From a virus (lineage: Duplodnaviria; Caudoviricetes), in IMG/VR virus record IMGVR_UViG_3300027779_002131, positions 1 to 61,777 of that record: a DNA stretch of 61,777 nt. One strand, given 5' to 3'. The position numbers were made by a program, and so were the translations under genes. Under the pieces are notes generated by a model. That model did not search any database. It worked only from the letters and a program-made list of their open reading frames with translations, and had not been told where the DNA came from. This document shows positions 5,029 to 56,400 of this stretch, in pieces. How positions within the stretch are numbered: position 1 is the first letter of the stretch; every line of letters starts with the position of its first letter.

Positions 5029-5763
5029 TTACCTTCGCTTACCAGTGTACTTTTTGTTTGTCGGTGACGGTTCATCATTGGTTGGTAGTGGCATTGCCCA
5101 AAAGCCTATTTTTTTTCTAACTTCGTCTTCGGACGCTTTATTTAGCATGTTGAAGATTTGTTTCTCAGTTAAATCTTCTTTGTTCCATTCGCTTTGGGAT
5201 AACAGTCTTGATGCTTCGTGTAAATCTTTTGACGATTCTTTTTCAATAACTTCTGGCGGCCTTTCTACAAACTCAGTTACCGGTACTTCGACTATCTTTT
5301 CTATAATTCTTTCGGGTCCGGGGACTTCGACAATTCGCTCTGGCCCAGGGACTTGGACTTCTTTAGTAACCACGACTTCCTTCTCAATCTCGATCGGTTT
5401 CTCAACAATTTTTTCGACGACCTTTTCAATTTCAACCTCCTTAGTAACTATTATTTCTTTAATAACTTCAACTGGGATCTCAACCTCTACTTCTACTATC
5501 TTCTCAACTTTAACTTCTACTATTTTCTCAACCTCTACTATCTTCTCAACTTCAACCTCTACTATTATTTCTTTAGGTTTTTGCTGTAGAAGCCAATAAG
5601 TTGCGTCCAAGTCTTCTTTTAAAGTTACAATGTTCTTATTAAGTTTTATCTTTTCTTTTTTCCACTGCTCTATTTCGGCAAGTTTATCAACAAGCGTTTC
5701 CATTGTGCTTTGATATTTTGCATATAGTTCGTCGAACTTTTCTTTAACTTCTTGTTCGTTCAT
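5029..5763 (-). CDS. Hypothetical protein with VEKIVE/VPGPERI repeats
   Basis: Low-complexity V/E/K/I/P repeats after an N-terminal coiled coil. Confidence 0.75.
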   Translation of the reverse strand: MNEQEVKEKFDELYAKYQSTMETLVDKLAEIEQWKKEKIKLNKNIVTLKEDLDATYWLLQQKPKEIIVEVEVEKIVEVEKIVEVKVEKIVEVEVEIPVEVIKEIIVTKEVEIEKVVEKIVEKPIEIEKEVVVTKEVQVPGPERIVEVPGPERIIEKIVEVPVTEFVERPPEVIEKESSKDLHEASRLLSQSEWNKEDLTEKQIFNMLNKASEDEVRKKIGFWAMPLPTNDEPSPTNKKYTGKRR

Positions 5764-7239: not shown

Positions 7240-7297
7240 TATTTATCGTTTCTTGTAGCCACAAGTCGTTAGAAATAGGATGGGCATCCTATAAATA
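7240..7297. promoter_or_regulatory. Back-to-back divergent late promoters
   Basis: TAAATA at 7240-7245 (-) and TATAAATA at 7290-7297 (+), each 5 nt from an ATG (7234 and 7303). Confidence 0.7.
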
Positions 7298-7302
7298 TGG
7301 GT

Positions 7303-8478
7303 ATGATATACTTAGAAAAGATTTCTACAGAAAGGTCACAAACATACAGCAAACTAAAATATTCATTTAGCGATGCAATGGATCACCCTGGATTAATAGG
7401 TATTTTTTATAATAATCCAGAGTTCGGTGATGAGATTAAAAAACAATGTGATGAAGCAGGCATCGGTTTTGGAAAAATGTTTGGTGCAGATGGTGTAACC
7501 ATTGATGCATTATCAACACTGATGGTAAAAGATTTGTCAAACTATTGGTTTGAGATAAATGCTTATGACTTTATGCAATTAGAATTAAAGCAACGTGAAA
7601 ATTTAATTGACACTTATAATATTATTGTCTATGATTATATCGATGGCGGTTACCATGTAGAGTTATACTTGCCTCTGCATTATTTAAATGACAAAAGGAT
7701 ACTAAACGCCAGTGGTGCATTTGATAAATTTGGAAACGACACATTATGTATACCAGTATTCCCACTTATAACTTATAGTGAAACTGTGAGAACAGGAAAT
7801 GTTGTACCTGAGAGTGTAATAGATTTACCTAAAGACAAACGTTGTTTCTTCCCCAACCATAAACCTAGACCAGGCAGACTGCAAACACTAGCAAGACTGG
7901 CTGAGTTAGATCTACTAGATGAACATTGTGATTGGAGTTTAACAGTAAACTTTGATGAGGACGGACAACTTGGCGATTACTTTAAAAGTCCTAACGTAGG
8001 ACTAGGTAGATATGGACATTCACTTGAACAATCAGAGTCTGTTAAAGACTTTGTAAAGAAATACAAATCAGCTTTACCTAAAGTTCTACCAAACAGCACA
8101 ATAGAATTATTTAAAGATTGTATACCTTTAAACAAACGTTACGCTGGAAAGTACACATGGAAGTTTGCATGTGAAACATATCCGCATATCAAGTTTAACA
8201 CAGAAAAAACTTTTAAAGGAATGATGGCTGGTATACCTGTTTTAACTATTGGTCCTAAGAATTTAAACAAAGGATTAGTTGACGCAGGCTATATAATGGA
8301 ATACACAGAGCTTTACGATCACTTAGAATTTGGTGATGAACGCATTGAAGCAGTAATTGATATTATGGTTTCGAAACAACCTAATATAGAAGCAGTAAGA
8401 CACAATTATAAGTTATCACATGATGTAAAATTCTTAGCAAGTCTCATAGTAAACCCTCTCAAGGAAAAACTGACATAA
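7303..8478 (+). CDS. Hypothetical protein, possible glycosyltransferase-like fold
   Basis: C-terminal CETY...TEKTFK...GIPVLTIG resembles the GT10-like TEK motif. Confidence 0.5.
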   Translation: MIYLEKISTERSQTYSKLKYSFSDAMDHPGLIGIFYNNPEFGDEIKKQCDEAGIGFGKMFGADGVTIDALSTLMVKDLSNYWFEINAYDFMQLELKQRENLIDTYNIIVYDYIDGGYHVELYLPLHYLNDKRILNASGAFDKFGNDTLCIPVFPLITYSETVRTGNVVPESVIDLPKDKRCFFPNHKPRPGRLQTLARLAELDLLDEHCDWSLTVNFDEDGQLGDYFKSPNVGLGRYGHSLEQSESVKDFVKKYKSALPKVLPNSTIELFKDCIPLNKRYAGKYTWKFACETYPHIKFNTEKTFKGMMAGIPVLTIGPKNLNKGLVDAGYIMEYTELYDHLEFGDERIEAVIDIMVSKQPNIEAVRHNYKLSHDVKFLASLIVNPLKEKLT

Positions 8479-8508
8479 AAAAGCCCTACTCGTCAGTAAG
8501 GCTTTCTT
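8477..8508. terminator. Probable bidirectional intrinsic terminator
   Basis: AAAGCC-C-TACT-cgtc-AGTA-A-GGCTTT stem with T-tracts on both strands, between convergent units. Confidence 0.7.
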
Positions 8509-8598
8509 CATTCAACACTTGTTATTTTCTCATTGTTTTTCTCTCTTTAGTATGACAGCATTCATTCGTCAACATGGTCACTGTCGGGACCATTAAAC

Positions 8599-8675
8599 TG
8601 GGGTGAACGACGGGGTTCGAACCCGCGACCTCCGAAACCACAATCCGGGGCTCTACCAACTGAGCTACGTCCACC
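8599..8675 (-). tRNA. tRNA-His(GUG)
   Basis: Cloverleaf with G-1, GTG anticodon, TTCGAA T-loop and encoded CCA. Confidence 0.96.
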
Positions 8676-8677
8676 AT

Positions 8678-8752
8678 TGGCGGTCTGTAAGGGAATCGAA
8701 CCCTTATATCAGGATAGACAATCCCGCATAATAACCATTATATTAACAGACC
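8678..8752 (-). tRNA. tRNA-Asp(GUC)
   Basis: GGTCTGT/ACAGACC acceptor stem, GTC anticodon and encoded CCA. Confidence 0.93.
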
Positions 8753-8760
8753 ATTGAATC

Positions 8761-8835
8761 TGGTACTCCCTGGGAGAGTCGAACTCCCGTTGCCGAGATG
8801 AAAACCCGGTGTCCTAACCACTAGACGAAGGGAGC
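8761..8835 (-). tRNA. tRNA-Glu(UUC)
   Basis: Cloverleaf with TTC anticodon and encoded CCA. Confidence 0.95.
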
Positions 8836-8841
8836 AAGTAA

Positions 8842-9100
8842 GATAGATACGGTACACTTGAGGACTTTACTAGGTGTGGTTTTGATTCTACTCTATTCAC
8901 TTTTATCCTACCTCGTTTACGAAATACCACTCGGGTATCTATCACATGCTACTCTCATGCACTATTTTGACAGTCCAAGTGCGGTTGACTGATTACATTC
9001 TACTCTGATCGGTTTATAGACATTGATCAGTAGTCTAGCAATTTGTTTTTGTTGTTTAAAGTCTGTACAAAACTAGCGTCAGAACGCAAAAATCAGACTA
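8842..9100 (-). ncRNA. Candidate structured ncRNA between queD and the tRNA cluster
   Basis: No ORF in the track; several helices, an H-type pseudoknot and three AGAGUAG repeats. Confidence 0.5.
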
Positions 9101-9109
9101 TAGAAACTA

Positions 9110-9601
9110 TTATGGGTGTGGAATAAATCTCGTTTTTACATGATCATTAAGTTCTACGGTAGCACTATTATGTTCATGCTCCCTAACTGTAACTTTCTGT
9201 ACCCAACACCTTTTACCATATTGTTCTTCAATGATGTCTTGAGCTTTATCAAACACTAGTTCTGCAAATCTTTCACATCCTACTGCTGGTACTACTCTAA
9301 TATCAATTAAGCCTTTAGCTTGTAACATTTCAATTGTTTCCATTTCTGGATCATCTTCTGCTACTAAGTAAGTATGATCAAACATTAGTTTTAACCATTC
9401 TTTAAGTGGCTTTAGTCCACCAAAGTCTACTACCCAATTTCTGTCATCCAATCCTTCACTGCCGAATTGTAACTCAAATTGTAATGCATAACCGTGTATT
9501 AAGTTGCAATGACTATCTGCTCGCCATTGCCTAAATGCACAACTATGTCCAGTAGAATGACTGTAAGTCTTCCCACTATAAAATCTCTTATTCATTAACA
9601 T
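9110..9601 (-). CDS. queD: 6-carboxy-tetrahydropterin synthase (QueD/PTPS family)
   Basis: HCNLIHGY, VVDFGGLK, FDH, CERFAE and REHEHNSA. Confidence 0.9.
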   Translation of the reverse strand: MLMNKRFYSGKTYSHSTGHSCAFRQWRADSHCNLIHGYALQFELQFGSEGLDDRNWVVDFGGLKPLKEWLKLMFDHTYLVAEDDPEMETIEMLQAKGLIDIRVVPAVGCERFAELVFDKAQDIIEEQYGKRCWVQKVTVREHEHNSATVELNDHVKTRFIPHP

Positions 9602-9621
9602 ACCTCGACTGTTTAAAATTT

Positions 9622-9650
9622 ATTATACAGCCTATTTAGGCATTAGTCAA
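9622..9650 (-). promoter_or_regulatory. Sigma70-type promoter with embedded TAAATA
   Basis: TTGACT-N17-TATAAT upstream of queD and the tRNAs. Confidence 0.75.
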
Positions 9651-9671
9651 CCTGAATTTAAGTTTTATTGG

Positions 9672-9878
9672 TTATTTTTGATGTTTAGGCAGTTTTGTTT
9701 CTATAAACCATTCGTGGACTCTTTTTGCTGGGTTATATTTCTTTAATCTTAACTTTCTATTCTCTTGAGTAAGAGTTTTAGTTTTAACTGCTGTGTAATG
9801 ATAAGTGTGAGAATCTCTTTTCTCACCTTCTGGAATTAGATATACTGTTACGTTTTTTTTACTGCTTTTTGTTGCCAT
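9672..9878 (-). CDS. rpmG: Ribosomal protein bL33, zinc-free form
   Basis: YHYTAVK...KLRLKKYNPAKRVHEWFIETK; no cysteines. Confidence 0.85.
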   Translation of the reverse strand: MATKSSKKNVTVYLIPEGEKRDSHTYHYTAVKTKTLTQENRKLRLKKYNPAKRVHEWFIETKLPKHQK

Positions 9879-9933
9879 GTCTCTGTTTGTTTGTGAACTA
9901 GCCCAACTGGGTTGGGCATCACTCGATTAAAAA

Positions 9934-10398
9934 TTAGTCTTCTAAGCCTGCATCTTCTCTGCTTATATCAACTACACTTTCAGAAATAAGTTTACTTCTG
10001 TTAGCCATATGTTTCATTTGAACTTCTTCCTTACTTCCACCAAAGTATGCTACTGCATGACCGGTTTCAATAAGAACATCTGTTGCTGGTTTCATTTCAC
10101 CGTTCCACTCAACATCAAAGTCGCCTAGTATTCTACCAAACTTACCTTTCATGTCTTCGCCGTTCTTGCTGACCTGAGTTTTTAAAATTGCTGTCTCTCC
10201 TAGTAATGATATTAGTTTTGCTTTAGCGGCTTTCCCGAAGACTTTCTCTACAGGATCGCTTGTTCTAGATTCAGGTGTATCAATTCCCATCATTCTAACT
10301 CTTTCGTCTCGAAGCCAAACTCCGAATCCTAAATCGATGTCTACATCAACGGTATCACCATCAACCACTCTTGCTATATTTACTCTATACTCATACAT
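9934..10398 (-). CDS. Thermonuclease (SNase-like)
   Basis: RVVDGDT, VRMMGIDTPE and KFGRILG; GGAG SD before the ATG at 10398. Confidence 0.9.
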   Translation of the reverse strand: MYEYRVNIARVVDGDTVDVDIDLGFGVWLRDERVRMMGIDTPESRTSDPVEKVFGKAAKAKLISLLGETAILKTQVSKNGEDMKGKFGRILGDFDVEWNGEMKPATDVLIETGHAVAYFGGSKEEVQMKHMANRSKLISESVVDISREDAGLED

Positions 10399-17932: not shown

Positions 17933-20635
17933 ATGAAAACAGTTGTTTTATATCCAGGAAGATTTCAACCAATGCTACCGCACCATGCGGAAGTGTACCG
18001 GCACTTACAGTCTGAATTTCCTGATGCAGAAGTACACATTGTTACAGCAGATAAAGTTGAAGCAGGCAGGTCACCATTTACTGCTGATGAAAAACGTCAG
18101 ATTATGATGCAACAACATGGTATTCCTGAGGATAGGATTATCATTAATAATCAATTATATAACTGGAAAGCATACGAAAATACATTTGACTTGTCTAATA
18201 CTAAACTAATTTTTGCTGTAGGCGGTAAGGATATGGAAGGGAATCCTAGATTTAGTTTCAAACCAAAGAAGGATGGCTCAGCAAGTTACTTACAAATGAT
18301 AAATACAACTAGCGACCATGCATTACCAGGCGATCAAAGAGGTTATGTATACTCTGCACCAACTATAGGTGATGAGAATGAAGCCGCAAGTGCAAGTGCA
18401 TTTAGGCAGGCTTTATTAACTGCACCAGACTTAGATAGTGCTAAAGATGTATTTACTAAGACAATGGGAGAGTTTAATCAAGGTATTTTTGATTTGGTAT
18501 ATGATAAAATTACAGGTAATATTATGAAAGAATCATTAGAAACATTAAAGAAATTAGCAGGCTTGCTCGACGAAGCTCCAGTTAACTTTGCACCAGGCAA
18601 AGGGAATATGGACTACGAACCAGGAGTTAGCTCAAAAGATCAGAAAAATGCGGCCGAAAGACCTGAGAAGGCGGCATCAAGCAATCCAAACTCTGTAGGA
18701 TTTACAGATATTGGACCAGAAGATATGATTAGTGTTGATACCGGTAAGCCAATTAATAGCAAACAAAGAGCTAAAAGCATGGCTAACCAGTTTCCAGATG
18801 GTGCTGACATAAATGACCCAGCAGTTAAGAAAGAACAATTTTTAAAAGTACTAGCACGTTCACCAGGTTATGTATTAGGTGAGATTAATGCTAGATTAGC
18901 CAACGATGACGAAGGCTTTGCCGCAAGTGACAGATTAAGTAATATTATTGATAGGTTACCAGAAGATGGAGTAATGGGATTAGGCGACGAAGATCGCAAA
19001 TGGACATTATCATTAGTAAACAATGCAATCAACAACATGGTATTACACAAGAAAGACCCAGACTTGGATAACTTTGATGATGAACCACATGAATTTCAAG
19101 CTGGCATAGATTCATTAGATAATGAAGAGCCAGAAATGGTCAGTTTAGATGACCCAGAGTATGATTCACAGCCAGATGATGATGAATTAGAAATGGAAGA
19201 AACTAACGATCTCAATGACCTGAGACAAATGGCTGGCTTAGAAAGACAAGAAGTTAGCGAAGGTGGCGAGTGTTACCACTGTGATGGAACAGGAGTACAC
19301 CAAGATGAAGATGGTGAAAACTATGACTGTGAAAAATGTAATGGTTCAGGTTATGTTGGAGCTAGTGACGATGATCAAGATGAACCAGGACAAGATGAAA
19401 TCGATGCTCACGCAGAACCCGTATACAAAAAATATATTAACAACGACCAAGACGAATCATTAGATCTTTCTTCAGTTGTTGAATCTATTATAGGTGAAAA
19501 AAGAATAGACGAATTAAATTTTAGTAAGATAAAAAACTTAATAATGCAAAAAGTAGCATCTAAGTTTGGAAAAGGTGAGCATGACACTATTGAAAAAAGA
19601 ATAACAACATCTTACAAGAATGCAGGCGAAGGCGAATACGATTCATACATTACAGTAGATGGTGAAAAAACATATGGTCCTTTCAGTGGTATTGAAGATT
19701 TTGCAAACGCTATGACAAAGATATCTAATTCATTAATAATGAATAAAGACACCAGCAAGTTTAGCCATAAGGTCCTTAAACCTCTTGATCCTGAGACTGG
19801 CCACGCTTTTCAAGATCCAAAATTTCAACAGAGTGTACGAGATTTAGGGTCCAAATTAAATAAAGCAGATGTAGATGCTTTACCAGTTAAAAAAGAAAGT
19901 GCGCCAGAACAACAAAACTCTGAGATGAGTGATGAAGAATTACATGCATACGTTGGACAAAAAGAAGAAGATTTGGTGCAGGATATGATATATCACTTTG
20001 CTCCAGATTATGTTGGCAAAGATAACTTTGAAGAAAGGTACGAAAGGTACAGAGAAGAAGTATTACTGCCGGCGGCACAGGATGTAAGTGCAGAGAAAAA
20101 TGCAGATGACATGGCTGGCACAGACTATGACAGTGATGACTTTGTAGACAATTACAATATGGTAGGTGATGATGAAATTAACCAAGAAGAGTCCTTAGAC
20201 GAGCTGGATTCGACCCCACAAGATCCGGACGGTAACGGTTACGACGCAGAAGACGCCGCTAGATGGAAGTTAACAGATACTCATAGTGGCAAAGAATACA
20301 GAGCAGGCTCTATATTAACTATGGTACATCCTCCTGCAACAATACTTGCTATTATACCACCAACTGCTTCTACCGAAGGCGCTATATCAACTAGCAACCG
20401 TACTATCAGTAGAAGAGAGTATGAAGCATTAGGATTGAAGATGTCTCAATCAAGACAACGTCCAAGTCAAGGTGAACTAGCATTACCAAAACCGGACCCG
20501 CATCAACCAAACTTACCAGGAATGGCGGGCGTCGTTAAAAAGCTAGAACCTGAGACAACTGAAGGATTAGATTTAGCAATTGATAACGCTCTAGCAGAAA
20601 CAGTAGCAGAGCTTAGAAAACTAGCAGGATTATAA
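17933..20635 (+). CDS. Large modular protein: cytidylyltransferase-like N-terminus, DnaJ-type zinc finger and LxxLAGL repeats
   Basis: YPGRFQPMLPHH; CYHCDGTG...CEKCNGSG; TAAATA-N5-ATG. Confidence 0.75.
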   Translation: MKTVVLYPGRFQPMLPHHAEVYRHLQSEFPDAEVHIVTADKVEAGRSPFTADEKRQIMMQQHGIPEDRIIINNQLYNWKAYENTFDLSNTKLIFAVGGKDMEGNPRFSFKPKKDGSASYLQMINTTSDHALPGDQRGYVYSAPTIGDENEAASASAFRQALLTAPDLDSAKDVFTKTMGEFNQGIFDLVYDKITGNIMKESLETLKKLAGLLDEAPVNFAPGKGNMDYEPGVSSKDQKNAAERPEKAASSNPNSVGFTDIGPEDMISVDTGKPINSKQRAKSMANQFPDGADINDPAVKKEQFLKVLARSPGYVLGEINARLANDDEGFAASDRLSNIIDRLPEDGVMGLGDEDRKWTLSLVNNAINNMVLHKKDPDLDNFDDEPHEFQAGIDSLDNEEPEMVSLDDPEYDSQPDDDELEMEETNDLNDLRQMAGLERQEVSEGGECYHCDGTGVHQDEDGENYDCEKCNGSGYVGASDDDQDEPGQDEIDAHAEPVYKKYINNDQDESLDLSSVVESIIGEKRIDELNFSKIKNLIMQKVASKFGKGEHDTIEKRITTSYKNAGEGEYDSYITVDGEKTYGPFSGIEDFANAMTKISNSLIMNKDTSKFSHKVLKPLDPETGHAFQDPKFQQSVRDLGSKLNKADVDALPVKKESAPEQQNSEMSDEELHAYVGQKEEDLVQDMIYHFAPDYVGKDNFEERYERYREEVLLPAAQDVSAEKNADDMAGTDYDSDDFVDNYNMVGDDEINQEESLDELDSTPQDPDGNGYDAEDAARWKLTDTHSGKEYRAGSILTMVHPPATILAIIPPTASTEGAISTSNRTISRREYEALGLKMSQSRQRPSQGELALPKPDPHQPNLPGMAGVVKKLEPETTEGLDLAIDNALAETVAELRKLAGL

Positions 20636-22773: not shown

Positions 22774-23085
22774 TTATTTGATGTGTTTACAATTGCCTCT
22801 AAACGTGAATCCAGGACATGAACATTTTCCGTCATCAATAGTATATACTTTACCATTTGAACCTTGTACTGTAACAACACCAGCCGCAAGTCCTTCTTCT
22901 CGTTCACCGAGTTTAACGAACTTACGTCTGCTCTTGCTAAACTGCTTTAAAGGATTCTTAAATGTTTTTAAGTCGCCTACTAGCGGTTTATATGCTACTA
23001 ACTGTCCAGCACCGTTAACATGATAAATGCCATTACTAACAGAATAATTTCCCCAATCAGTTACTTCTTGTAATATATCGATCAT
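22774..23085 (-). CDS. SWIM zinc-finger protein
   Basis: CSCPGF...CKH. Confidence 0.75.
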   Translation of the reverse strand: MIDILQEVTDWGNYSVSNGIYHVNGAGQLVAYKPLVGDLKTFKNPLKQFSKSRRKFVKLGEREEGLAAGVVTVQGSNGKVYTIDDGKCSCPGFTFRGNCKHIK

Positions 23086-23387
23086 ACTAAACCTACTAAA
23101 CCCCGCACAATTGATTGTGCTAATACAGTGACAATAACAGCATTAAGCATAATTAATGCCCTGTCTTTCCAAAGTAAGCCAACTGTGAGCCAGCCCATTG
23201 TTCCTACTAAACTAAACCATACATCAATCATATGGTATTCTATGCCGGCGCTTCTTGCCACTACAGCTATTAATATGAAGGCACTTGCACACCATTTAAC
23301 ATACCAACTTAAATCTTGCTTTGGTGTTGCCGATTTATAGATTCGTTTACTATTTTCTAATTCCTTAGGATCAAATTGTTTGCTCAT
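23082..23387 (-). CDS. Small three-TM membrane protein
   Basis: WYVKW...W..G.LWKDRALIMLN. Confidence 0.75.
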   Translation of the reverse strand: MSKQFDPKELENSKRIYKSATPKQDLSWYVKWCASAFILIAVVARSAGIEYHMIDVWFSLVGTMGWLTVGLLWKDRALIMLNAVIVTVLAQSIVRGLVGLV

Positions 23388-29682: not shown

Positions 29683-29758
29683 TGGTGGAGCTGATAGGGA
29701 TCGAACCTACGACATCCACGTTGCAAACGTGGCGCTCTCCCAACTGAGCTACAGCCCC
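29683..29758 (-). tRNA. tRNA-Ala(UGC)
   Basis: GGGGCTG acceptor with G3:U70, TGC anticodon and encoded CCA. Confidence 0.96.
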
Positions 29759-29765
29759 CAAATTG

Positions 29766-29841
29766 TGGAGCTCGGAATAGGATTCGAACCTACGACCTGT
29801 TGATTACAAATCAACTGCTCTGCCAACTGAGCTATCCGAGC
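29766..29841 (-). tRNA. tRNA-Thr(UGU)
   Basis: Cloverleaf with TGT anticodon and encoded CCA. Confidence 0.96.
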
Positions 29842-29907: not shown

Positions 29908-30075
29908 TTATCTTTCGCCGAATGGCTTTTTAGATACAAATTCATTTAACCGTTCTGCTTCTCTAAGAACTTCGTCAGTGGTTGGCATATCTTCTGGATT
30001 CTTTGCTTTAGCTTGTAATATTTCTTTTGCTTCTTTTACTAAATCTAACCTAATTTCATAAGGGGTTTTTGACAT
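29908..30075 (-). CDS. Small hypothetical protein
   Basis: MSKTPYEIRLDL...FVS; AAGGA SD. Confidence 0.7.
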   Translation of the reverse strand: MSKTPYEIRLDLVKEAKEILQAKAKNPEDMPTTDEVLREAERLNEFVSKKPFGER

Positions 30076-30213
30076 TTTTAAATCCTTTGATAATGTAATA
30101 TTATATACCAATATTTATCATGGTGTTCATAAAAAGTTATGTATAGCTTTAAGTTGCGGATAAATACAGTTGCTTAAGAAATTAATTTTAAGTGTTAAAT
30201 TTAATATATTATC

Positions 30214-53432: not shown

Positions 53433-56400
53433 AATTGTTTTAATACATTTTTGTTCAATTTCATTTTTGCATAGCCTTTAACTATACTTCTAATATCATG
53501 CTTGTCGCCGTAAGCCGCTCTAGCGGCTCTAAAATCTCTAATCATCGATGGATCTGGTATGCAAACATACGCAGTCATTTGTGCTTTAAGATCGCCTGTT
53601 AAGATAGGACTTGCTAACACTAGTCGTAACTTTCTAATTGTGTCGTTGTTAGGTACTGCGCCTTCTTGTACACTTTCAACTTTCTTACGCATACTTGATC
53701 CTCTTACTTTTAATAAGTCTACTAAACCTTTTTCTTTTTCAATGTAGTTCCTAATGTAGCCTTTACTGTTCTGATACATTCTAACTGATAAGAATTCTTT
53801 GCCTGTAATTTTGTTAAAAATAGTAATCTTAGGATGTTTTGCAGTTTCAATCATCCTTGCTTCTAAGTCAACTTTATCTTTGTCCATCATTCTATCTAAC
53901 TTTTTAAAGTCTAACACATAGTAGCCGCCTGCTTTTAAATCTGTAAACTGTACTAACTTGACTCTATCGTCATTCAGTGTAGCAAAGAACTTAATTGCAT
54001 CTAATAATTTTACTAGAAAGTTTTTTTCGTTTTCTTCACTAGTTAACTGTGAACTTAATTGTTTTGTTGCTTCAGTGTATGCAATTCTGTAACCTTGCTC
54101 AACTGAATCAGCAGTAATAAATTGATCTTCAATTGGTGTTAAGTCAACATTAAATCTATCCCACATTTCTTTTAATATACTATAACGTACAGTTAATGGT
54201 TCTTTTTGCTTGCCGCCACCTACTTGACCCATTTGTTTTGTACTACCAACTTTAACACTCATATCAAAGTGTTGCAATGTTTTTTCTGGGCCGCCATCTA
54301 AACTGTGGGTTAAGAATACATCTACTTTAGTATCTGTTTCTCCGGTTACACCGTCAGCAATAACTTTTACTGTATCTACTTTACCATTTGCTTGGAAATA
54401 ATTTGTGTACCTTTCTAAATTATCATTGACATACTCTGCAACACCAGTTGTTATTTGTTGCATCACACCCCACTTCTTAGGATCTATAAAGTCCATGTAA
54501 GTATCGTGTTTTAAATTAAGTGTTAGTGTAAAGTAATCTGCTATAGGATTATCTACTTCTTGTGCTGTAAGTGTTAGCTCATGCCAGCCACCCTTGTCTG
54601 GGGCATCTTTAGGTAATCGTTTAATTACATTTTCTATATCTAGTGATGTTACTGGTGCACTTGGACGTACTAATAAACGTGCAAATGTGCCACAGCCTAA
54701 TATGCCTTCTGCTACTTCACCTTTGTTTGAGACTTTAACAGGAGCGTCACCATCTGCATCTGCTGTTCTGGCTCCAAAATCTGCTGTTTTTTCTAAAGCC
54801 GAGTAGGCTATTATTTCGCCATCTGCTGTTCTCAGTTTTGAAGGTAACTGTGAAGCATTCTCGGCATTGTAAAATGCATCAGCCATTTCTGGGTCTAGTA
54901 CAATCTTGCCTGTGAATCCTGCTAAGTCAAATTCAGCACCTGCACTTAATTTGTCAGCAAATGCTTGTATTCTTGCAGGTGTTTTTAATTCTGCTCTGCC
55001 TAAGTCTCTTTCAAACATTTTAATATGTATATTATTAATTTTGCTAGAGTCTATTTTCTCTAGCATAAGTAGTTGTTCTTCTAGTGTTTTAGCTTCTAGT
55101 TTTTCAAAAGTAGTTGACTCTATTCCAAATGGTGGTCTTTCTTGTACCCGGCCTCTAAGAGGTTCACCCTGCTCAACGCCTGGCGCATCCACGCTATGGG
55201 TAGTGGTATTGTAGGTGTTTCCATTTTTTACTACTTCTATTGCTTTTGCTAATGTGTAAGGACCATCGCGTGTTAATCCGGCAAGTAATGCCGATAGTAG
55301 AACGTTTTGATCAACTCCCTTTGTGTTTGTCATGTTTAAAAACTTAACTAGCATCATCGTCGGGCCTTCAAAGTATCTCGATATACCATCCCTCATCATG
55401 GAATCAAAAGATGGAAACTTAGTTCTAATGTTCTGTATTAGATCTTCATCGTCTGGAAAAAATGTAGAGTCTTCTTTGGATAACTTTTTAACAATATCTG
55501 GATTGTTCATTCGCCATACATTTGCACTAGTTGGTTCAAATGGTTCTCCGCCTGGACCGTTAATTACTGATCGAGGTAACAGAGGTTCTAAGTTGTAAGG
55601 TTCTACTCCTTCTCTACCGTCACCATTTTCTATAACTTCGATGCCTAGTTTCCGGAATGCGTCTTTATTTACTTTTTTTATTTTCCTGAACCCATCATTA
55701 TTAAAGTTGTCAAATTCATAACCGTAAATCATATTCCATTTATTGAGAATCTTATCAGCTGATTTATTTCGCCACTGGCGTTCATCACGTCGTAGAGCAA
55801 TTGCTCGACTGGTTCGATCAGATTCTGCTGAAAATATTTTGGAGGCTTCGAGAGCTATATAATAATATGCCCAAGGTACGTTAAACACTTTTTGAGATTC
55901 ACTATGATACATACTGCTACCAAAGAAAAACTGACTATAAAAAGCTCTTGATTCTTCATCTGTTATAGGTTCATCTCTGTTTATTTTTCCAGTCATTTGC
56001 GCCATGTCACCTAATAACTGTTCAGTTACATATAGATCTCCACCATATGCGTATGTAGTTATAGTTGCCGGTGCATCGCCTATATATTTACTTGTAAACT
56101 CTTCACCTCTTTTATGTTGAGTGAGCTTGTTATCAATATCATCTTTTTGACTATTAAATCCCATCTGTTGTGATATTTTATCTAAGTTAGTCATCCAGGT
56201 TGCAATAGCATCTGTTCGTGGTTTTATTATTTTTTGAATAGCTTTGGATTTATTATAAAAATCTTTATCTTGTCCTAGTCGATTATAGTAAGCCGACAAT
56301 GAATCATTAATATAGCGTACTACACTAGCACTTATCTGATCTACTGGATTATCGTCAAAAGGGCCTGGTATATAATTAGTGCCTCTCAATGCTTCTATAT

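Follow-up and report, generated by a model that had tools for sequence, protein, structure and literature searches.

What is encoded in a spacer of about 270 bases (274 nucleotides (nt); positions 8836-9109) between a queD-like gene and a tRNA-Glu gene of an uncultured phage? The spacer lies in IMG/VR record IMGVR_UViG_3300027779_002131, a 61.8-kb piece of a large uncultured phage; the whole stretch of 61,777 nt was analysed and is called the window below. All features concerned are on the minus strand. An initial annotation, made from the sequence alone, had drawn the spacer as a single RNA of about 260 nt with nested closing helices, a pseudoknot and three copies of AGAGUAG, and had interpreted it as a novel RNA or a protein sponge released by tRNA processing. 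Comparison with homologues in other phages indicates that the spacer is instead a series of four small RNA folds, each conserved on its own, here termed T, PK-A, PK-B and M in 5' to 3' order. The alignments show each module to be conserved as a unit, with compensatory changes in its helices, on the tRNA strand and in other orders elsewhere.

Conserved RNA folds in the queD-tRNA-Glu spacer

The modules and their helices are listed in Table 1. All strings of the single-RNA drawing, including the three AGAGUAG copies (8888, 8949 and 9000), are present at the coordinates assigned to them, and several of the proposed helices were recovered in homologues. Both stems of the proposed pseudoknot (CAGUC/GACUG and GCACU/AGUGC) are fully paired in 13 unique homologues and constitute PK-B. 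The 9-bp helix GAUAGAUAC/GUAUCUAUC corresponds to P1 of module M, and all eight of its modelled pairs have compensatory changes. The CUGAUC/GAUCAG pairing is conserved too; in place of the simple hairpin that had been proposed, it forms stem 2 of another pseudoknot. The closing helix drawn for the 5' domain, UAGUCU/AGACUA, was rejected. Its strands are used by the better-supported outer stem of T and stem 1 of PK-A; five of the six outer-stem pairs of T, which compete with it, show compensatory changes, and the downstream AGACUA is absent in relatives carrying T; the helix is missing where T occurs alone. The single RNA with nested closing helices had to be abandoned as well: its four pieces are found separately, are reordered in other phages and sometimes lie between two tRNAs.

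Folding of the whole 274 nt is no better than that of dinucleotide shuffles (z = +0.82 for the minus and +0.33 for the plus strand), and the window's own copy of M has a z of 0.00. Homologues of M with longer stalks fold at z of -2.0 to -4.4 (L083, L088 and L097); the values for L082 and L093 are -1.2 and -1.0. Rfam 15 yielded tRNAs only, both in window positions 8000-10000 at E up to 10 and in the whole window at the gathering score. It likewise found nothing but tRNAs in six related loci (gathering score) and in short stretches with minimal M or with M and the module X described below (E up to 10). ARAGORN and the Rfam tRNA clan found nothing in 8836-9109, no cloverleaf and no T-arm. Of the three refuting outcomes named in the initial annotation, folding no better than shuffles is what the region as a whole shows, while a match to a known family was not found; the third, a lack of covariation, is decisive, and compensatory changes are present in helices of all four modules. 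The suggestion of an undescribed conserved structured RNA beside a phage tRNA cluster was borne out. As an observation the initial annotation is partly confirmed, its components being real and their overall arrangement drawn wrongly, and its interpretation is partly supported.

Module M

Relatives of queD in IMG/VR gave 80 loci, and only one of them (L029) has tRNAs after queD. Compared with the window, this locus keeps the 9-bp helix of M through three double changes (GAUAGAUAC/GUAUCUAUC in the window, GUGAGAUAU/AUAUCUCAC in L029) around a common 19-mer. The 19-mer of the M core is present in 23 IMG/VR loci. A metagenome scan with a 20-mer produced at least 120 stretches, and a covariance model, R1, run on the first 80 of these loci matched 79. 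Three further IMG/VR scans used relaxed seeds, two of them giving 87 and 52 stretches. The final collection contains 205 instances and 114 unique elements, and the motif is common to more than 100 uncultured marine phages. The window has one copy of M, and other loci also have one copy per contig. Among one genome each of 185,579 prokaryote species, the 20-mer matched once, on a 4.4-kb contig of a metagenome-assembled genome. With E values up to 1 allowed, a blastn search with the 274-nt spacer matched none of 50,697 phage records from GenBank.

The P1 stalk of M usually has 7-22 bp, and its sequences are unrelated between lineages. In 93 unique sequences 98.8% of the P1 cells are paired, with both-side changes at eight of the eight modelled pairs. 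The P1 covariation score was reached by none of 500 shuffles, and sliding the partner strand by 1-3 columns reduces pairing to 39-56%. The 4-bp helix P1b is invariant in the seed-selected members and covaries under the relaxed seed, where GGUA/UACY, GACU/AGUC, GGCA/UGCU, GGUC/GACY, GAUC/GAUU, AGGA/UCCU and GGGU/ACCU are found; it is 100% paired in 41 distinct rows and has compensatory changes at three of five modelled pairs. The internal loop has the family form UUUCGUAAAY opposite NNN-GUG. In the variant of L325 and L327, C28 is changed to G together with a change of G97 to C, both otherwise invariant loop bases, and this joint change points to a C28:G97 pair inside the loop. The family form of P2 is GGG/CCC, of 3-4 bp, and only the window copy shows a double change from G-C to A-U. 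About 30 core bases of M hardly vary, and the minimal form is 58-76 nt long.

The first position of P1b is G-U in 52 of 93 elements and U25-G99 occurs in 93 of 93. The G-U pairs in P1 and P1b, together with the constant orientation relative to flanking genes and tRNAs, fit an RNA of the minus strand. The first 93 variants were also sorted by the size of the insert: nine have a 5-nt loop, about 20 a short hairpin with UGUAAAUU after it, 23 a 30-nt insert and about 40, including the window, the longer hairpin P3. The P3 loop of the long class contains AGAGUAG, AGUGUAG, AGAGAAG or AGAUUAG. On these alignments M is a real RNA family, uncatalogued in Rfam.

Three other readings of the M core were rejected. 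A D-arm-like hairpin CGAG/UUCG suggested by RNAalifold fails at position 18, which is A, U or G with a fixed partner, and P1b covaries instead. A tertiary pairing between the CG of the bulge and the CG of the loop is unsupported, the C28 to G variant being compensated at G97 and not in the bulge. A coding origin was dismissed on account of more than 14 consecutive invariant bases between wholly different stalks and the lack of a third-base pattern.

The lowest-scoring variant (L326:6953-7019, 45 bits) has a bulge AA-U without the constant C-G and a G-U in P1b. Many phage contigs (L107, L108, L110 and others) share 16 identical bases with the 3' half of M inside a conserved coding stretch, which was taken as GTP cyclohydrolase I (folE) from inspection of the sequence, with the frame F-P-K-C. 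In a scan with the M 3' half, 20 of 45 loci lack the 5' half, most of them in this folE-like stretch. The identity was judged to be chance.

Modules T, PK-A and PK-B

A blastn search of 8944-9109 against the collected loci showed that each piece of the rest of the spacer has homologues elsewhere. Module T is a two-tier hairpin with a U-rich internal loop between its two stems. Ten unique variants were found (nhmmer search 11), and nine were aligned, with L093 left out. In these nine, 92.6% of the outer-stem cells are paired and five of the six pairs are compensatory. The GC inner stem varies yet remains complementary by inspection (GCGU/ACGC, CCACG/CGUGG, GGG/CCC and CCCGGG/CCCGGG). Two contigs (X3 and X5) from RNA libraries of two studies match T at 9049-9102 with five differences and have unrelated sequence on both sides. 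On one side this flank resembles a reversed tRNA, so that T-like modules adjoin tRNAs in other phages of these samples.

The sequences UAGAC and GUCUA flanking the CUGAUC hairpin pair and covary, which makes PK-A a second H-type pseudoknot with the layout of PK-B. Among eight unique PK-A variants 96.3% of the cells are paired, and one S2 position is unpaired in three of the eight. Compensatory pairs are found in S1 (A-U in five variants, G-C in three) and in S2 (G-C in seven, A-U in one). In PK-B, whose third loop L3 is UCAAAAU, all 130 of 130 cells are paired in 13 unique variants; a pair of S1 is G-C in ten and C-G in three, and one of S2 is C-G in twelve and U-A in one. The covariation support for PK-B is modest, coming from few lineages, but clean.

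Module order and linkage to tRNAs

The surroundings of the 114 unique M elements were mapped for M, T, PK-A, PK-B, tRNAs and one more module, X. A tRNA-Glu(UUC) follows M in 64 of them. In 46, M stands alone: it is flanked by protein genes, and neither a tRNA nor another module is found within about 650 nt. The most frequent orders are M-X-tGlu (25 elements), M-tGlu (18) and M-X-tGlu-tAsp-tVal (4). Individual loci have PKA-M-tGlu-PKB-tAsp (L146), M-T-PKB-tGlu (L123), M-X-tGlu-PKA-PKB-tAsp-tVal (L219), M-tGlu-tVal-PKB-tAsp (L242), M-tGlu-T (L231) and T-PKA-M-tGlu (L300). The order of the window, T-PKA-PKB-M-tGlu-tAsp-tHis, is unique in the mapped set. PK-B lies between tRNAs in L146, L161, L181, L219 and L242. 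Modules and tRNAs are often separated by just 1-8 nt, the modules of the window are 3-13 nt apart, and among the tRNAs listed none is on the strand opposite to the modules. Being found separately and in varied orders, the pieces are independent units strung together with tRNAs and do not form domains of a single RNA.

Module X, of about 100 nt, is situated between M and tRNA-Glu in 30 of the 114 unique M loci (L096:7628-7730, and also L136, L140 and others) and is absent from the window. It reads AAUAGGGG..CUCGGG.AAGGGACAGG, then a 7-bp stem, then ..CCAUCCCUCCA. The stem covaries (GGUUCAC/GUGAACC, GGUCCAC/GUGGACC, GGUUUGC/GCAAACC and GGGUAGC/GCUACCC), and X has no match in Rfam at E up to 10.

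Words of the form AG(A/U)G(U/A)AG follow PK-A in eight of eight variants and PK-B in 13 of 13, and occur in the P3 loop of the 117-122-nt class of M. Similar words are therefore at the same places in homologues, and the repeated AGAGUAG of the initial annotation is conserved in its position relative to the folds; the triple in the window is unremarkable, since 7-mer triples are common in shuffles and this one is not significant alone. Of 150 unique 60-nt contexts upstream of tRNAs, 18 contain AGWGWAG, where about 3 would be expected. As a general signal of tRNA leaders it was rejected, because its positions are scattered and the enrichment is due to the modules themselves. Other 7-mers repeated at least three times within 125 nt were seen in the window at 5380-5556, 19300-19392, 23084-23211 and 54757-54823, apparently tandem or periodic coding repeats.

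Genomic setting and presence in RNA libraries

The phage fragment has a CheckV completeness of 20% and encodes a ribonucleotide reductase and a ClpX-like ATPase; no close isolate was found. The queD-like open reading frame (ORF) is the upstream neighbour of the modules and stands outside the RNA array. The tRNA-Glu starts 6 nt past the 9-bp P1 helix and 3 nt past the extended P1. Beyond the run of tRNAs lies a convergent ORF (7297-8478).

Table 1. Predicted features of the spacer and its neighbours (window coordinates)
Feature	Position	Strand	Basis or remark
queD-like ORF, 163 amino acids, 6-pyruvoyl-tetrahydropterin synthase family	9110..9601	-	Pfam PF01242 (PTPS), E 8e-17
Module T, two-tier hairpin	9060..9099	-	Compensatory changes; first 40 nt after queD
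T outer stem AGUCUG/CAGACU	9094-9099 / 9060-9065	-	
T inner stem GCGU/ACGC	9084-9087 / 9076-9079	-	
Conserved linker UUAAACAACAAA after T	9038-9059	-	
Module PK-A, H-type pseudoknot	9000..9037	-	Covariation, eight unique variants
PK-A stem 1 (S1) UAGAC/GUCUA	9033-9037 / 9017-9021	-	
PK-A stem 2 (S2) CUGAUC/GAUCAG	9025-9030 / 9005-9010	-	
AGAGUAG after PK-A	9000-9006	-	
Module PK-B, H-type pseudoknot	8949..8991	-	Covariation, 13 unique variants
PK-B S1 CAGUC/GACUG	8987-8991 / 8971-8975	-	
PK-B S2 GCACU/AGUGC	8978-8982 / 8959-8963	-	
AGAGUAG in PK-B tail AUGAGAGUAG	8949-8955	-	
Module M, stalked core motif	8842..8943	-	Covariance model R1, 86.2 bits; covariation
M P1	8935-8943 / 8842-8850	-	All 8 pairs compensatory
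M 5' bulge CCGAGU	8929-8934	-	Family pattern N-C-G-N-R-U
M P1b GGUA/UACC	8925-8928 / 8851-8854	-	Compensatory pairs
M conserved internal loop UUUCGUAAAC / AAGUG	8915-8924 / 8855-8859	-	
M P2 GAGG/CCUC	8911-8914 / 8860-8863	-	
M variable hairpin P3	8872-8909	-	Loop AGAGUAG at 8888-8894
tRNA-Glu(UUC)	8761..8835	-	ARAGORN; Rfam tRNA 59.2 bits
tRNA-Asp(GUC)	8678-8752	-	ARAGORN; Rfam
tRNA-His(GUG)	8599-8674	-	ARAGORN; Rfam

A second pair of tRNAs (Thr and Ala; 29683-29841) has a 67-amino-acid ORF directly upstream (29908-30111, minus strand), which is conserved and syntenic in several related contigs. RNA modules before this pair were considered and rejected, the apparent gap being this ORF.

Parts of 8400-9700 are held in 24 public sequencing runs, 22 of which are recorded as RNA. 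Zero-mismatch contigs from four RNA libraries of four studies cover 8800-9081, 8741-8997, 8852-9078 and 8859-9009. Pieces of queD are also found in RNA-library contigs. Contig ends recur at 9078-9081 and 8852-8859, where they cannot be read as RNA ends.

Possible function of the modules

We propose, with slightly better than even confidence, that the array belongs to a tRNA precursor, that tRNA processing frees the modules or leaves them as protected ends, and that their common word is shown to a trans-acting factor. T, PK-A, PK-B and M would be co-transcribed with tRNA-Glu, tRNA-Asp and tRNA-His. RNase P would cut at the 5' ends of the tRNAs and trimming would take place at their 3' ends, so that the modules would be released as small stable RNAs or, alternatively, remain as structured ends. 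The single-stranded AG(A/U)G(U/A)AG after PK-A and PK-B and in the loop of M could be the recognition site of one factor, either a protein or a complementary RNA. Release by tRNA processing is probable and fits the layout, in which modules are 1-8 nt from tRNA ends. M would also act without tRNAs; the activity of its core should not depend on tRNA-Glu, given the 46 of 114 variants that lack a nearby tRNA.

Several observations weigh against this proposal. Many of those 46 variants are located about 20 nt before a ribosome-binding site and a start codon, which fits a cis-acting role better. Each covarying pair of PK-A and PK-B is backed by a single lineage or a few, and part of the invariance of the M core was forced by the exact seeds used for collection. 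The folding scores of the region and of the window's M copy do not exceed those of shuffles. AGAGTAG is not enriched in the window (8 observed, 8.3 expected), in dinucleotide shuffles of the window an average of 4.8 different 7-mers reach three copies inside a 125-nt span, and the distance of AGWGWAG to tRNA starts is not fixed. The RNA-library contigs are assemblies, which reveal nothing of strand, ends or level and may include carried-over DNA; two of them run from the modules into tRNA-Glu (to 8800 and 8741) and represent either unprocessed precursor or DNA.

The alternative that survives best, which we consider unlikely, is that M and perhaps T are cis-acting boundary elements, namely a terminator, an attenuator or a ligand- or protein-binding leader controlling downstream genes. 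M resembles an aptamer in its architecture, a nearly invariant loop and bulge being framed by helices that covary. In 65 of 93 unique elements the end of an ORF of 50 codons or more falls between -12 and +11 nt from the first pair of P1. The commonest of these ORFs belongs to a family of about 78-79 amino acids (41-44 unique loci, for example L208:2482-2718; 41 of the 64 elements having an upstream ORF), and its stop codon supplies the first bases of P1. Neither Pfam nor PHROG has a match to this family, and in the window its place directly upstream of M is taken by queD. A fixed protein partner for M was rejected, as the upstream ORFs form at least nine unrelated clusters. In one group of elements M is closely followed by a U-run, a ribosome-binding site and an ATG 32-35 nt after P1b. 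At least five U in 8 nt are present within 12 nt after P1 in 52 of 113 unique elements (46%), compared with 14% of random 12-mers from the same loci. The GC hairpin of T is followed by GUUUUGU or GGUUUG, the latter after stems of 5-6 bp in relatives; in the window the inner stem has 4 bp, and a terminator scan flagged neither T nor M. The covarying outer stem, which encloses the whole of T, is not a feature of terminators, and T is upstream of M in the window and downstream of it in L123. What follows M is also heterogeneous: tRNA-Glu, X, T, PK-B, an endolysin-like hydrolase, phrog_11903 and several small ORFs of at least four unrelated families, none of them metabolic. A tRNA begins only 2-8 nt past P1 in about 20 variants, too close for an expression platform to fit in between.

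We regard as doubtful a joint reading in which M represents a new class of RNA that is catalytic or binds a factor, either a ribozyme that cuts transcripts or the anchor of decoy RNAs of the tRNA operon. In the decoy version PK-A, PK-B and M (and X) would present AG(A/U)G(U/A)AG to capture, in the course of infection, one RNA-binding factor of the host or phage. That M specifically belongs to a new class of small self-cleaving ribozymes, cutting polycistronic transcripts at gene and tRNA boundaries, is improbable. It would account for the small minimal form, for the approximately 30 nearly invariant bases in a bulge and internal loop between covarying helices, for the intergenic location in phages with no fixed gene partner, and for the frequent proximity to tRNAs, which HDV (hepatitis delta virus)-like theta ribozymes of gut phages reportedly adjoin as well. 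On the other side, Rfam has no ribozyme match even for the minimal form at E up to 10, and contigs X2 and X3 are unbroken through M, a weak point given that contigs show no ends.

A role of the conserved pieces as DNA, with inverted repeats serving as a recombination, replication or packaging signal, is very improbable. One copy per contig and a P1 that forms a variable inverted repeat around a constant core would suit it; the opposite strand would have A-C mismatches in place of the G-U pairs, the orientation is always that of the flanking genes and tRNAs, the pseudoknots require single strands, and the region is present in the RNA libraries of four studies. Chance patterning in an AT-rich spacer, which concerns the single 260-nt nested RNA only and agrees with the region's folding scores, the 7-mer triples expected in shuffles and the unconserved 5' closing helix, is scarcely credible and is contradicted for the four modules by the compensatory changes among homologues of every sub-piece.

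Should the modules act as decoys or as processing devices, this would go some way to explaining why phages keep tRNA operons. If they are merely stabilising spacers, the extreme conservation of the M core would still need an explanation. The 58-nt minimal form of M with its nearly invariant core is easily synthesised and directly testable, and the shared AGAGUAG-like word offers a concrete handle for pull-down.

Comparison with known RNAs

Extra stable RNAs in phage tRNA clusters have been recognised since T4, and fifty years on their function is still open. The preQ1-I riboswitch is a small H-type pseudoknot with an A-rich third loop along stem 1, and PK-B resembles it in both respects by inspection. 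This assignment, which the adjacent queD had suggested, was rejected: PK-B has no Rfam preQ1 match at E up to 10, and it is located 3' of queD and not in a que leader. In other contigs PK-B is found between tRNA genes with no que gene beside it.

The species 1 and 2 RNAs of T4 (rnaC and rnaD), which are cut from the T4 tRNA cluster by tRNA processing, are the closest in kind to the modules. Like the modules they are small, lie on the tRNA strand and abut a phage tRNA gene; position and strand are shared, homology is not. With filters off, R1 reached at best 7.0 bits (E 0.5) in T4 70.5-72.7 kb, outside rnaC and rnaD. The T4 RNAs follow tRNAs, whereas the modules of the window precede them, and by inspection rnaC terminates in a T-arm like that of a tRNA, a feature lacking in M, PK-A and PK-B. 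The GAGUAG hexamer of rnaC is the core of the AGAGUAG of the window. In rnaC (L267:2909-3047) it occurs twice, one copy pairing with a downstream CUACU; this could be coincidence and is given as a lead only. In T4, rnaD begins 1 nt after tRNA-Arg and rnaC 6 nt after rnaD, and a GenBank note describes both RNAs as stable.

One or more of M, T, PK-A and PK-B may already be listed in a 2023 catalogue from IMG/VR, which contains 8,495 motifs supported by covariation, 29-151 nt in length with a mean of 67 nt, a part of them tRNA-like or gene-adjacent (PMC10690425); the available parts of its main text do not mention a motif upstream of tRNA-Glu. The GOLLD and ROOL RNAs are described in a preprint as structured, pseudoknot-rich RNAs of phages and prophages, often near tRNA islands, that have 500-800 nt or more and form multimeric cages (bioRxiv 10.1101/2024.12.08.627333). 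In contrast, the modules of the window have 40-120 nt and no Rfam match to GOLLD or ROOL. GOLLD and ROOL show that RNAs of tRNA clusters can be elaborate. The present analysis adds a set of small RNA modules that are sharply conserved, are combined in different ways and come from uncultured marine phages that are abundant. The modules appear to be new RNA families of a kind already known beside phage tRNAs.

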